Shown here: one piece after another, positions 3,818 through 63,960 of the stretch
Position numbering within the stretch: position 1 is the first letter of the stretch
How the letters are laid out: each line of letters starts with the position of its first letter
Virus record (IMG/VR): IMGVR_UViG_3300014205_000223
Location: 3,875-67,874 of that record
Strand: one strand, 5' to 3'
DNA: 64,000 bases
DNA from: a virus
Lineage: Duplodnaviria; Caudoviricetes
Position numbers and translations under genes: made by a program
The notes under the pieces: model-generated
The model's input: only the letters and a program-made list of their open reading frames with translations
What the model was told of the DNA's origin: nothing
Database searches by the model: none

Positions 3818-4083
3818 TTTCCTTTACTCTTGATCAGCTCAATGTGTTTGCAAAAGAGTACACATCTATGCTGCACAAAGATTATCCGTTTTCCTATGAA
3901 CATTCCGTGCGCCACTACTCTATAGCGTTTGTTTCAGGTTTCGTTAAGTATCTGGAAACAATATCACAGGAACCATTAGTAGACCTTCCTCTTGAGTGTT
4001 GTGATGACAATCCCTGGGAAACACTAACAGCTAGAATAGCCCCGGTATTTCTCCGTGGGCATGACGACACATCAGGATTTTGA
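3814..4083 (+). CDS. hypothetical protein
   Basis: 89-aa ORF with ATGA coupling. Confidence 0.55.
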   Translation: MISFTLDQLNVFAKEYTSMLHKDYPFSYEHSVRHYSIAFVSGFVKYLETISQEPLVDLPLECCDDNPWETLTARIAPVFLRGHDDTSGF

Positions 4084-60361: not shown

Positions 60362-60428
60362 AATTTAGTTTGCAATTTGGGTAAAAATGAGTTGTAATAA
60401 GTTGCACTTTTAACTATTGGAGATAAAT

Positions 60429-60701
60429 ATGAAAACAATCAATACCGGAGTAAAACTTGATGAGGCATTGCACACCCGCCTTAAAGCCCTGGGCGAGATA
60501 AAAGAACGCTCTCCCCACTGGATGATGAAAGCGGCCATCGAGGATTACGTAAGCAGGGAAGAACGCTATGAGCGGGAGAAGCGTGAGGACGAGGAAAGCT
60601 GGCAGCAATACAAACTAACTGGACATAGCATACCGCACGAACAGATTATACGGTGGGTGGAGTCCTGGGGAACCGATGAGGAATTGCCATGCCCAGAATA
60701 A
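60429..60701 (+). CDS. CopG/ribbon-helix-helix antitoxin
   Basis: GVKLD..L..RLK.L....RS.HWMMK.AI..YV..EE; W..Y..TG.S....I..W..SWGT..E...P; GGAG RBS. Confidence 0.85.
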   Translation: MKTINTGVKLDEALHTRLKALGEIKERSPHWMMKAAIEDYVSREERYEREKREDEESWQQYKLTGHSIPHEQIIRWVESWGTDEELPCPE

Positions 60702-60973
60702 GCTGGCTTCCTACAGCACAAAGGGATCTTCGCAGGTTGCGCGCATTCCTGGCCGACAAAAGTCCAAGCGCGGCCAGGCGAGCCGTGATGAAGATGCTGA
60801 CCGGAGCGGAAATACTTTGTGATTTCCCGGAAGCAGGCAGCCCAATGAACGATGGCACCGGACGGCGAGAACTGATCCTGCCATTCGGCGCGGGTGATTA
60901 TGTGCTGCGCTACCGGCTTGACGGGCAAACTGTGCTAATCATCCGCGCTTGGCACAGCAAAGAAAACAGGTAG
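60689..60973 (+). CDS. RelE/ParE family toxin
   Basis: A..DL.RL..FL..KSP.AA.RA...I..GA..L..FP..G, RELI.PFG...YV.RY......V.I.R.WH..E.R. Confidence 0.9.
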   Translation: MPRISWLPTAQRDLRRLRAFLADKSPSAARRAVMKMLTGAEILCDFPEAGSPMNDGTGRRELILPFGAGDYVLRYRLDGQTVLIIRAWHSKENR

Positions 60974-61022
60974 TTTTTAGCACAGATTTTTGTTGAGCAT
61001 TTGCTTGACAACTTTATTTAGC

Positions 61023-61716
61023 TTATTTTAAAAACTCTTCCGGTATTTTTGCGCCCTTTATTATGTTATCAATAGCCCATAACGGTCTTAAGTTGGTATA
61101 GTGGTTTAGTTCCAACAAATGTGCTTCATCACGGGCCTTTGATACTGGGAAATGATGATCGATGTGCCATTCACTTCTTCGCTCCCAACTCATCCCTTCC
61201 TGGAATTGACTTTCTATGTGCATTTTGAATTCTTCAAAAGTGCAGCCAAGTATTTCAAATGTCTTGGATTTTTTGGTGTATCCTTGGTTTTTTATAGATC
61301 GCTTTATAATCGTTCTAATGTACATAGAGAACTTATATAAGGGATCGGAGTCTAATCGCTTTTTACGGTATCTTTTATACATTTCAGAAACCTTCTCTGT
61401 ATTGGCCGATTTCCATTTCCTGACGTTTTCAGCATTCTTTTCTGGGTTCTCTGCCCTCCATATTTTGTTTCTCTCACAATTCCTCTCACTGTGTCCTTCA
61501 TAATATTTTCTATAATTATAAATAACTTTATCTGGATTCGCTGTCCGCCATTTTTTTTTGACGATCATATAGAATATCTTTATTTTTTGCTTGCCATTTT
61601 TTTGAACTTTCACGTAAACATTCCTTGCAGTATATATTTAGTCCATCTTTTTTACTCTTATCTTTACCGAACTCACTCTCATCTTTTTCAATTTTGCATC
61701 TTCTACATAATTTCAT
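61023..61716 (-). pseudogene. Zn-finger HNH-type (endonuclease VII-like) gene split by a frameshift in an A9 run
   Basis: 5' part MKLCRRCK.EK..SEF.K....KDGL...CKEC (ATG 61716, GGAG RBS) ends at 61528; 3' part KWR...F..HIE.QF..GMSW....WHIDH..PVS....NHYTNL.PLW..DN..K is in another frame; removing one A at 61551-61559 joins them. Confidence 0.75.
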
Positions 61717-61855
61717 TATTTTTCTCCACAAACTTTTCAAACATCAATTCAATCAACTGTATGACCGTTATATCCATCTCTAACGCCAGTCTTTTTATAT
61801 TCTTGTGTGTTGCTACTTTGATTCTTATTGTCTTATACGGCGCGTTCTTGTTCAT
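61703..61855 (-). CDS. 50-aa ribbon-helix-helix-like DNA-binding protein
   Basis: MNKNAPYKTIRIKVATHKNIKRLALEMDITVIQLIELMFEKFVEKNNEIM*; AGGA RBS; overlaps the HNH start; below the ORF-track cutoff. Confidence 0.6.
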   Translation of the reverse strand: MNKNAPYKTIRIKVATHKNIKRLALEMDITVIQLIELMFEKFVEKNNEIM

Positions 61856-61882
61856 TTGAATTTCCTAGTTATGTAAGATTGC

Positions 61883-61911
61883 AATATACCACGTATTACA
61901 CATAAAGTCAA
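61883..61911 (-). promoter_or_regulatory. sigma70 promoter for the RHH-HNH cassette
   Basis: Minus strand TTGACT-17-TATATT. Confidence 0.65.
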
Positions 61912-62299
61912 TCTATAATTATGCTAAATAACATGCACAGTTATTTGACATTAGCGTAGATTTATGTTGCGTTCAAGTTTAGCATGTGCTATACTGCTCG
62001 TGTAAATAAAAAATCTGCCTACACAGATAGAAAAGATGAGCGATCGTTCTGGAGCATATTAAAACAATGCTCGTGTAGGCAGAATGATCCCTCATCTTTT
62101 TTGCGTTTTGTAAAATAAAATTGAGCACTTCAGGGGTAACCAGGTTCAACTCAATTTGATCGGCGGGAAGAATGAGCAAAGCCCGCACCGTGTGGATAAC
62201 AATCTGAAAATGTTTTTACGGCAAGACTCTTGAAATACTGGGCCATAACCTGACACTGTTGTTATGGAATTACCGGGGAGAGTTGACATCCTCCCTGAC

Positions 62300-62902
62300 C
62301 TAAAGGACAGGGATTCCTACTGCTAGTCTCTGATGTCCCAGAGAGAGAATGTTCTTAGCTGCATTAATATCTCTATCATGCATAGTGCCATATCTTTCTA
62401 GTATTTCTTTAGCCCAAGCTATTTTATCGACGACACGCTGTCCACATGGTTGTGATGATGACCATAGTTCTAAGTTTTCAATTCTGTCGTCATCACGCAC
62501 ACCGTTTAAATGGTGAACATTTTCATCTTTATACAAAGGCCTACCGATGTGTTGCTCCATGATATATCGGCATTTTCTATAGACTTTCCCATCAACACGT
62601 ATCTCTACATATCCTTGGTTTGTTAACCACTCACCGCCTTTGAAGTTAGGGTTTTTACTGCCTAATTTACTTAACCCTTGGCATTTTGTTGAGCAAAATA
62701 ACAAAGCGTTTTTGGGTGTTAGATTTCCTTTGTCCCTAATAAACTCTTTTCCACATGATTTGCATACGCGAGTTATTTTTGACGCTATTGATTGCCATTC
62801 ACAAGCGCATTTTCTTGAACAGAATATCCTGTTGATAGTTCTATGCTTATTTATGGTTTCCAAGCCGCATTGCTTACAGTTAAACAAATCACCTACTTTC
62901 AT
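62300..62902 (-). CDS. HNH endonuclease (two Zn-finger repeats plus HNH_3-type core) fused to the TnpB C-terminal RuvC-III tail
   Basis: CKQCG...FCSRKC, CKSCGKEF...FCSTKC, GYV.I...YIMEQHIGRPL...E.VHH.NG..DD.R.ENLELW, then GTMHDRDINAAKNILSLGHQRLAVGIPVL. Confidence 0.85.
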   Translation of the reverse strand: MKVGDLFNCKQCGLETINKHRTINRIFCSRKCACEWQSIASKITRVCKSCGKEFIRDKGNLTPKNALLFCSTKCQGLSKLGSKNPNFKGGEWLTNQGYVEIRVDGKVYRKCRYIMEQHIGRPLYKDENVHHLNGVRDDDRIENLELWSSSQPCGQRVVDKIAWAKEILERYGTMHDRDINAAKNILSLGHQRLAVGIPVL

Positions 62903-63102
62903 TATTTCAACTCCTTCATTAAATCGAAGCCGGAAGTCTCAAGGTTCATATAACCAACTTCTGGAACTGGAACCCAAGAGAATTCAGCAGACGTTTCATT
63001 AGCTGCATTCCAAACCTGATTGCACTCAAAAGCCATACGATTCAGCACCTTTGCGTGCTTGTCGCGTATTCTAACTTTGAGTGTTTTAGTTTGGAGTGTC
63101 AT
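62902..63102 (-). pseudogene. tnpB: TnpB N-terminal fragment (66 aa)
   Basis: KTLKVRIRDKHAKVL..MA.E.NQVWNAAN is a TnpB-type N-terminus; stop overlaps the HNH start (TAATG). Confidence 0.75.
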
Positions 63103-63263
63103 TTGCCTTGCAATAATTCCATAAGTTGTTTTTCAGTATAACGCCTATGCCCACCAGCAGTACGCACAGGGACTAATTTCTTTTTGACTTCCCATCTTCT
63201 CAGTGTGGTTACATCTACACCAAGTAGTTCAGCCGCTTGTCGAATGTTAATATATTTTTCCAT
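63099..63263 (-). CDS. 54-aa MerR-type HTH (IS607 TnpA N-terminal-like, no serine recombinase domain)
   Basis: MEKYINIRQAAELLGVDVTTLRRWEVKKKLVPVRTAGGHRRYTEKQLMELLQGK*; ATGA overlap with tnpB; below the ORF-track cutoff. Confidence 0.8.
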   Translation of the reverse strand: MEKYINIRQAAELLGVDVTTLRRWEVKKKLVPVRTAGGHRRYTEKQLMELLQGK

Positions 63264-63427
63264 GTTGTATATTATTTCATAGTTTTACATAGAAGTCAAC
63301 ACCTATTTATGCTAACATTAAATTAGTGGTAGTGCCTTATATTCCCCAAATTAAGCAAGTGGCTTTACGGCGTATTTAGGTAACATTATATCGAGGAAAA
63401 TTAATTCACTATTTGCTAAATATTTAC

Positions 63428-63457
63428 TTGACAACTTTGTTTAGCATATGCTATACT
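63428..63457 (+). promoter_or_regulatory. sigma70 promoter with palindromic operator
   Basis: TTGACA-18-TATACT; perfect palindrome TAGCATATGCTA at 63442-63453. Confidence 0.75.
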
Positions 63458-63459
63458 TA

Positions 63460-63960
63460 CCCATAAAGTCGAGCTTGGTAACTCGGCGACATCAAAAATC
63501 GGAGTTCATGGGAAGCGTGAACCGTTTGATGCAATTTTAGATTTTTGATGTGTTAAACGACCAGGCCGATTTTAGATTAATTCCACAGAAAAGCCTGCGT
63601 CATAACCGATGTAGGCTTTTCTGTTTGCATCGAAAAAACACTAATTCAATATTTTAAAGGGGGTTTGCACCCTGGCGCGTTACCTCAAACGTAATCGTCA
63701 AGCATGGATAGAAAGCAAATACGCTATATCTGGGAGGGTAAACTGACCGGGGATATAGCGGAAAATGCCAAACCGGGTGGGAACGTGGCAATAAGGTGGA
63801 ATCGAAATAGTAGAGCCTTTCCCTGCGTAATTTACTGCGCGAAGTCTGCTATGTTATAGCCTGTGAATGGGTCTATTTCTGCCATAGTCGGGTATCTAAT
63901 CCCCTGGGCAAGCGATTGATTCCCTAGGAATCTTTTGCCTTTGCGGGATTAGGTAAGTTA
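63460..63960 (+). ncRNA. candidate long structured RNA / leader
   Basis: No ORF of 60 aa or more; many stems (63489-63500/63540-63551, 63586-63598/63611-63623, 63722-63730/63752-63760, 63893-63903/63945-63955). Confidence 0.45.

Follow-up and report, generated by a model that had tools for sequence, protein, structure and literature searches.

A phage-type HNH gene read through into the last codons of tnpB: probable nested selfish elements in decay within an IS200/IS605 shell

When an HNH nuclease is found joined to the tail of the transposon-encoded nuclease TnpB, does the fusion represent a new RNA-guided enzyme, or the remains of one selfish element lying within another? This question is raised by a locus in a virus of the class Caudoviricetes (Duplodnaviria), IMG/VR record IMGVR_UViG_3300014205_000223, of which we analysed positions 3,875 to 67,874. 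This stretch of 64,000 nucleotides, here called the window, forms the last 64 kb of the 67.9-kb record, whose completeness is estimated at 87%, and the locus lies 700 nt from the contig end. Read along the minus strand, it presents a promoter-like site, a 54-amino-acid (aa) helix-turn-helix (HTH) gene, tnpB codons 1-66 followed by a stop codon, a TAATG overlap, a 200-aa HNH_3 open reading frame (ORF) that runs in frame into a TnpB tail, and the hairpin-bearing right end of a transposon. An earlier note on this DNA had recognised these parts, all of which are present, and had offered two explanations: a nuclease swap, in which an HNH nuclease is linked to an RNA- or DNA-binding fragment of TnpB, or a homing endonuclease that has colonised tnpB. 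Our analysis points with good confidence to nested selfish elements in decay, namely a dead, non-autonomous IS200/IS605 shell in a variable region of the phage, a complete HNH gene, and an incidental TnpB tail of 28 residues. There is no sign of a new RNA-guided enzyme.

The origin of the two tnpB pieces is evident from their relatives. The 66-aa amino-terminal remnant (TnpB-N; 62902-63102, minus strand, ending in TAA) is 94% identical to residues 1-66 of P0123, an intact TnpB of 364 aa, and 79-94% identical to intact TnpBs of ~364 aa that come from metagenomes or are assigned by annotation to Methylobacter and other Methylococcales. Residues 173-200 of the HNH ORF (62902-62300, minus strand) correspond to the last 28 residues of TnpB (337-364), with identity of up to 96%. 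The DNA that encodes them (62300-62390, minus strand) comprises the last 28-29 codons of tnpB, including the RuvC-III motif HDRD.NAA.NI and the C-terminus, together with the TAG stop, all in frame with the HNH ORF. Homology to intact elements at the DNA level covers 63106-62905 and 62390-62283, with none between.

Alignment to the closest intact tnpB, which the earlier note had advised, maps both breakpoints to the base. The left breakpoint lies at 62905/62904 (...GAG TTG AAA / TAATGAAAG), where homology stops exactly after codon 66; compared with the intact copy at locus L122, the window has one difference in the 56 nt before this point and unrelated sequence beyond it. The right breakpoint lies at ~62393-62390, where AGA TAT GGC ACT joins TnpB ...TGT GGC ACT and a T.TGG microhomology is common to both partners. 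Codons 67 to ~336 of tnpB (~810 nt) have been lost and replaced by 514 nt (62391-62904, minus strand) that are essentially one ORF. Only TnpB residues 1-66 and 337-364 of 364 are left, the latter amounting to the RuvC-III helix plus 15 residues, and the complete RuvC D-E-D triad, the zinc ribbon and the WED/REC portions are not present. The NCBIfam model guided_TnpB scores 16 bits on the remnants, against a cut-off of 100, with weak matches to the 66-aa peptide (profile positions 2-34) and to the tail (positions 352-388). The tail is 94.4% identical in DNA sequence to L128, and the N part is nearest to L122, at 87.6%. The tail of L122 aligned over only 57 nt, at 84%; either the family is mosaic or the two pieces in the window come from different copies.

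The replacing sequence, which extends from the HNH start codon to ...KEILERY(G), is a recognisable nuclease gene. Its product matches HNH_3 (PF13392) at residues 112-151 with 36.6 bits (cut-off 24.8) and its best PHROG HNH endonuclease family with an E-value of 3e-25, carries two N-terminal Cys4-type zinc-finger-like units, and has 241 database homologues, the best at 54% identity, which are mostly HNH_3 proteins of phages and metagenomes. Phages bear genes of this kind as stand-alone endonucleases that serve in homing or competition. In alignments of 16 and 120 homologues, the number of residues that follow the column of Y171 in the ...WAKEILxRY motif ranges from 0 to 46 (median ~7, with many at 0-3), as against 29 in the window protein. 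Because the homologues end near this motif, where the junction lies, the HNH gene appears to be complete and to have lost only its stop codon. On these alignments, the TnpB tail is a read-through of the HNH ORF to the tnpB stop. A match to the Cas12f1-like TNB family (residues 149-185) reaches 25.0 bits, slightly below its cut-off. The colonisation of tnpB by a homing-type endonuclease, the second of the two earlier explanations, fits both this complete phage-type ORF and a second HNH cassette nearby (see below).

The AlphaFold model of the fusion protein has a mean predicted local distance difference test (pLDDT) score of 80, with values of 93-97 over residues 91-150, and its C-terminal HNH helix runs straight on through the TnpB tail with falling confidence. 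Foldseek returned only weak best rows (YacG, E 0.17; I-HmuI, E 0.42), and a sequence search of solved structures with the HNH protein gave no match. The two residue changes that the earlier note had seen in the HNH motif are real: the window has H111C and N139D, substitutions shared by none of the remaining 119 proteins in the alignment of 120 homologues, which have His and Asn there. All other invariant HNH residues are kept, including H130, H131, N133 and N143 of the beta-beta-alpha-metal motif (HH ... N ... N). The two private substitutions suggest that the nuclease is attenuated or already decaying. The gene thus resembles free-standing phage HNH endonucleases with an I-HmuI-like core in its above-cut-off HNH_3 domain, its hundreds of phage and metagenome homologues and its variable phage surroundings. 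Unlike those genes, it sits inside another selfish element rather than between phage genes, and it lacks a stop codon and a ribosome-binding site of its own in addition to carrying the two substitutions.

The shell that surrounds these genes spans 63379 to 62283, or 1,097 nt, compared with ~1,360 nt in an intact copy without tnpA such as L003. The closest intact copies (L122, L124 and L126) carry a divergent Y1 tnpA (PF01797, E 1e-38 to 1e-40) between the left end and tnpB, and the shell family is therefore classical IS200/IS605. The intact relatives have a tnpB of 364 codons, shorter than the approximately 400 residues that had been assumed for TnpB, and their ends are the same as those of the window element. 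The 67.9-kb record contains no tnpA, whether within the element or outside it, and the window copy is non-autonomous at best.

Both ends of the shell can be located. The left end (LE; 63336-63379, minus strand) is 76-82% identical to the left ends of L003, L021 and L124-L126. It is preceded by TTAC (63380-63383), which stands ahead of the conserved left end in six of six aligned copies, the window and five others, the sequence farther upstream being different in each; by analogy with IS608-type elements, TTAC is the presumed target or transposon-adjacent motif (TAM). The subterminal LE hairpin has degenerated: CCCCTTCC-TTNA-GGTGGGG in five relatives corresponds to CCACTTGC-TTAA-TTTGGGG in the window, with several substitutions in the hairpin. 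DNA folding gives no hairpin for this sequence (z +0.43), whereas the left ends of L003 and L124 do fold. Because this hairpin is broken, the shell can probably no longer be mobilised.

The right end (RE) reads ...CCCTGTCC-TTTA-GGTCAGGG-AGGATGTCAA and was aligned with 45 related right ends, all of which stop at GTCAA. The boundary is identical across these loci, ...GGA(T/C)GTCAA, with unrelated flanks beyond it, and we therefore place the last base of the element at 62283 and the first base of the flank at 62282. The flank thus begins (CTCTCCCCGG...) one base earlier than the position 62281 originally proposed for the start of a guide. The RE hairpin is intact and carries a compensatory C>T/G>A pair that is private to the window.

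In several respects the locus resembles IS200/IS605-family insertion sequences with Y1 tnpA and tnpB, such as IS608 of Helicobacter pylori and ISDra2 of Deinococcus radiodurans, and their non-autonomous derivatives, which retain only tnpB or encode no protein, in the manner of palindrome-associated transposable elements (PATEs). It has a TTAC-type motif 5' of its left end and a TCAA right end, the 3' end of tnpB overlaps a structured RNA region, and its intact relatives have similar subterminal hairpins at both ends. Unlike these elements, it has no tnpA, its tnpB is cut down to codons 1-66 and 337-364, its LE hairpin is broken, and it contains foreign HTH and HNH genes.

Could the retained 3' region still yield a guide RNA (omegaRNA)? 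The 108 nt at 62283-62390 (minus strand), ending in GGATGTCAA, combine part of the omegaRNA region with the right end. A consensus fold built from the last 250 nt of 27 intact elements places three terminal hairpins, with many compensatory changes, within the last ~80 nt, and all three are present in the window. The family structure, as judged from the same 27 regions, reaches at least 160-250 nt from the right end. It is predicted to include a 4-bp long-range helix that pairs about -160 with the bases immediately preceding GTCAA, a 7-bp helix GAGAATG:CATTCTC, and an adjacent 5-bp helix. The window has lost the 5' strands of these helices (columns 98-101:267-270, 128-134:189-195 and 137-141:181-186), since they are located on the upstream side of the breakpoint.

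In ISDra2, the omegaRNA needs a 116-nt scaffold in which positions -3 to -5 form a pseudoknot with -103 to -105, and the C-terminal domain of TnpB is disordered and dispensable (PMC10097598). With only 108 nt kept and no TnpB body, a functional guide RNA from the window remnant is unlikely. The Rfam family HgcC matches the tail weakly (19.9 bits, threshold 50). If an omegaRNA were made, the right flank CTCTCCCCGGTAATTCC (62266-62282, minus strand) would serve as its guide. As the earlier note had also found, this sequence has no second match within the window. The reconstituted empty site is absent from viral contigs, and a search of 151 genomes of the family of a Methylobacter metagenome-assembled genome gave one hit with two mismatches, which is about the chance expectation.

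The other foreign gene in the shell lies towards the left end. The 54-aa HTH gene (63099-63263, minus strand) is of the MerR/excisionase type (Pfam MerR, 1.8e-12; HTH_17, 1.1e-10; also MerR_1). Because the left end is found at ~63379, this gene is inside the transposon, and it fills the slot in which relatives carry the divergent tnpA or its remnant. Homology to intact IS605 copies begins only 4-7 nt before the tnpB ATG, and the stop codon of the HTH gene is therefore supplied by the start of tnpB (the TGA of ATGA). In a phmmer search of 1.8 billion representatives, its nearest relatives were stand-alone HTH proteins of 60-80 aa and of mixed kinds (55-64% identity). The N-terminal domain of an IS607 serine-recombinase TnpA (L009) is equally near, at 57%. 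The gene may thus derive either from a phage regulator or from an IS607 TnpA fragment. It recalls IS607 in this similarity and in its ATGA overlap with tnpB, but unlike L009 TnpA, which has PF00239, the 54-aa protein ends after the HTH and has no resolvase domain, and the ends and tnpB relatives of the element are of the IS605 type with Y1 TnpA.

Upstream of the HTH gene, a promoter-like site (63271-63299, minus strand; TTGACT-17-AATAAT with TG) agrees with the consensus at 10 of 12 positions. Shuffled sequence yields such sites at least as often. A similarity to the promoter region of the HNH cassette nearby (61905-61927) is seen in the stretch TTAGCATAA..TTGACTT.

Other copies of the family also vary between the left end and tnpB. 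Two copies without tnpA, at L003:3752-4000 and L021:2276-2500, keep ~200-250 nt there, and the L003 stretch holds an opposite-strand ORF of 51 aa whose N-terminus is ribbon-helix-helix-like and which matches no Pfam family. Among copies, 225 to 511 nt separate the left end from tnpB, and content seems to be exchanged in this interval.

To establish whether the arrangement occurs elsewhere, relatives were collected from both sides of the fusion. On the tnpB side, ~120 loci were assembled (6 viral, 76 genomic with one genome per species, and 40 metagenomic). None of them contains an HTH or HNH gene within the related tnpB locus, and wherever both ends lie on the contig their spacing corresponds to a tnpB length of ~310-364 codons, mostly 350-364. 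On the HNH side, the best 80 viral loci were scanned with a family-specific TnpB hidden Markov model and a RuvC-III regular expression; within 2.5 kb of the related HNH gene, neither a TnpB fragment nor a RuvC-III motif was detected in any locus but the window. Among tail-bearing proteins of 110-350 aa, PF13392 (HNH_3) and PF07282 (the TnpB zinc-ribbon family) are combined only in the window protein. An exact search found neither of the two junction 22-mers in any other viral contig, and full-text literature searches turned up no account of a tnpB that had lost its core to an HNH gene. The architecture is thus, on these sequence comparisons, a singleton in the collections searched. The earlier note had called for a search of this kind, for the fusion and for its synteny, and had named a singleton as one outcome that would count against its proposal.

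The same searches place the junction in perspective. The remaining tail-bearing proteins of this size are ordinary partial TnpBs and two other read-in chimeras, P0401 and P0402, and 5'-truncated tnpB remnants of 118-149 aa (e.g. P0392) are frequent in this family. Since other unrelated N-termini also read in frame into tnpB remnants, the in-frame junction of the HNH ORF is less remarkable than it first appears. An ORF that reads into another coding sequence will meet it in frame with a chance of ~1 in 3. In P0401 and P0402 alike, the foreign N-terminus continues in frame into the 3' third of a tnpB of this family; that of P0401, on a contig of 595 nt, is a MarR-type HTH (PF12802) joined to the TnpB zinc ribbon and tail, and that of P0402 is hydrophobic.

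We propose the following history and mode of expression. An ancestral transposon would have consisted of the left end, tnpA, a tnpB encoding 364 aa and the right end. Its tnpA slot is now taken up by the small HTH gene with a phage-like promoter. A free-standing phage endonuclease gene of the homing type would then have recombined into the decaying transposon, such that the tnpB core was replaced by the HNH_3 ORF, most likely through illegitimate, microhomology-assisted recombination or template switching. Removal of the HNH stop codon in this event would let translation continue across the 28 terminal codons of tnpB as far as the stop of that gene. A single transcript starting at ~63299 is predicted to encode the HTH protein, a 66-aa TnpB-N leader peptide and the HNH protein. 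Their translation would be coupled by the ATGA and TAATG overlaps, with the AAGGAG encoded by tnpB, 8 nt before the HNH ATG, acting as the ribosome-binding site. The earlier note had identified the GGAG of this site and the TAATG overlap correctly, and had rightly held that both joints preserve translation. The HNH protein would act, if at all, as a protein-guided nuclease, with the TnpB tail a passenger modelled as a continuation of the C-terminal HNH helix. The 108-nt remnant, which has no family scaffold fold and no TnpB in cis, is not expected to guide.

Several observations weigh against this history. The three junctions keep expression signals that look functional (ATGA; AAGGAG with TAATG; the in-frame tail) and are neater than a random wreck would be, although selection for expression of the HNH gene can explain such order. 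The private compensatory double change in the RE hairpin indicates that some structural constraint has acted in this lineage, although the change may be older or younger than the HNH insertion. The ratio of nonsynonymous to synonymous differences per site (pN/pS) between TnpB-N and intact relatives is 0.09-0.18, against 0.06-0.10 between intact pairs, and pS to the nearest sampled copy is 0.43. On the proposed history these values reflect a recent event; they suggest either that the truncation is young relative to the divergence from that copy or that the peptide is constrained; the lack of excess amino-acid changes is as compatible with constraint as with youth. The predicted long-range helices whose loss argues against a guide lie in coding sequence, are near-invariant and have little covariation support, and their prediction leans more on conservation than on covariation. 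Finally, everything is drawn from one metagenome-assembled contig.

Of the competing explanations, the one that survives best is that the element is still mobile as a composite, an IS605 shell with HTH-HNH cargo that is moved or maintained in trans. A Y1 TnpA of the host or of a phage could excise and insert it by way of its left and right ends, or a host TnpB could use the retained right-end RNA to cut empty sites, and the HNH gene would then be hitch-hiking on the transposon machinery. Both ends can indeed be recognised by their TTAC (left) and TCAA (right), the compensated RE hairpin is intact, and autonomous relatives that bear tnpA exist in the presumed host clade. However, the LE hairpin that TnpA needs is disrupted and unfolded, the guide-RNA remnant is without its predicted pseudoknot partner, and no second copy, empty site or other insertion was found in the loci and viral contigs searched. 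We consider continued mobility improbable.

It is also decidedly unlikely, in our judgement, that the locus exemplifies a recurrent association in which protein-only HNH homing genes of phages take over IS200/IS605 shells and keep a functional tnpB 3' end and right end. The piece kept could then provide a 3' RNA structure that stabilises or terminates the mRNA, a handle for TnpA or TnpB acting in trans, or an RNA partner for the fusion of HNH protein and tail. If this were true, the in-frame junction of an HNH ORF before RuvC-III would offer a natural snapshot of the kind of event that lies behind the HNH insertions of the IscB/Cas9 type.

An assembler might instead have joined reads of a phage HNH gene to those of tnpB elements in the community, producing a chimeric contig. 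In favour of this are the origin of the sequence in one metagenome contig, a protein cluster with a single member, the multiple copies of this tnpB family in the community, and the different nearest relatives of the N part and the tail of tnpB. Yet the junction microhomologies are of only a few bases, far below the k-mers used by assemblers, and the four alternating junctions all keep reading frames and start/stop overlaps, unlike misassembly. The G+C content is even across the element (36-42%), which itself lies between unique phage flanks. An artefact is therefore very unlikely.

A functional nuclease swap would require the HNH-tail fusion, perhaps with TnpB-N, to bind the right-end RNA or DNA hairpins and act as a tethered HNH nuclease in the manner of IscB or Cas9. 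The locus shares with those enzymes the polypeptide order of HNH followed by RuvC-III, but it has no RuvC-I/II, bridge helix, PLMP/WED or complete guide-RNA scaffold, and its HNH portion, instead of being an inserted domain, is an entire foreign protein that brings zinc fingers of its own and has a separate start after a stop codon. Although the HNH stands directly before RuvC-III, in the same topological position as in IscB and Cas9, and although the three terminal hairpins and the translational coupling of three ORFs are preserved, this explanation is hardly credible, since the RuvC-I, RuvC-II, zinc-ribbon, WED and REC portions, by which ISDra2 TnpB grips its guide RNA (PMC10097598), are gone, the 28-residue tail is modelled as a plain helix extension of falling confidence, the 5' strands of the long-range helices are lost, the LE hairpin is broken, the arrangement is a singleton, the HNH is uniquely changed at two invariant positions, and no target of the would-be guide was found in the window, as an empty site in viral contigs, or beyond chance in the 151 genomes.

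The surroundings of the element are consistent with nested selfish elements accumulating in a variable part of the phage genome. In related phages, whose GroES and late genes are 63-67% identical, the portal and terminase genes lie directly upstream of a small ORF and groES, and at this place the window phage has ~3.6 kb of extra DNA. Loci L097-L099 share the late genes and not this region, and no allele without the insert was found among the related phages. The phage, which is uncultured, probably infects Methylococcales. The extra DNA includes a second cassette (~61004-61995, minus strand) with its own promoter, a ribbon-helix-helix-like ORF of 50 aa (61855-61703) and a gene of the endonuclease VII/HNH type. 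This nuclease is split into overlapping frames of 70 aa (61740-61528) and 196 aa (61613-61023), both of which match phrog_1035. The split falls at a run of nine A residues (~61553-61561), which may be a frameshift, a slippage site or a sequencing error. A TTGACA-18-TATACT promoter with a TAGCATATGCTA palindrome (63428-63457) occurs in an intact copy at 63412-63457 and in a second copy (60989-61026 and 61977-61995; repeats D2 and D6, 82% and 95%) that is split by the 61004-61995 cassette. Because the region holds this second HNH cassette in an interrupted promoter, it appears to be a dump for selfish nuclease genes, which fits the arrival of the first HNH gene by recombination.

Three further features of the window were recorded. 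Between groES and the second HNH cassette, a G+C-rich island at 60400-61000 (52-58%, versus 33-44% around it) holds a 120-aa ORF without a PHROG match and no tRNA. Between the element and the contig end, a 17-bp inverted repeat at 63585-63624 (ACAGAAAAGCCTGCGTC / GATGTAGGCTTTTCTGT) probably acts as a terminator in both directions; each strand matches Rfam Thr_leader below threshold. Near the other end of the window, a 219-aa ORF (597-1256) overlaps the folA start by ATGA and has no Pfam match at E 0.01; its first residues, MKISLISACD, resemble the folA N-terminus, MKINIIAACD.

What the locus offers is no new enzyme or guide system. If nested decay is the correct explanation, it provides a neatly resolved case of one selfish element overwritten by another, in which the breakpoints are all mapped and both partners are apparently decaying. 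It also carries a caution for annotation, in that a phage protein hit by both PF13392 and PF07282 need not be a new effector, since such a combination can be an artefact of read-through between nested mobile elements. At the same time, the junction shows how easily a foreign nuclease ORF can become fused in frame to a RuvC-III segment, which forms a background for the entry of HNH domains into RuvC nucleases.

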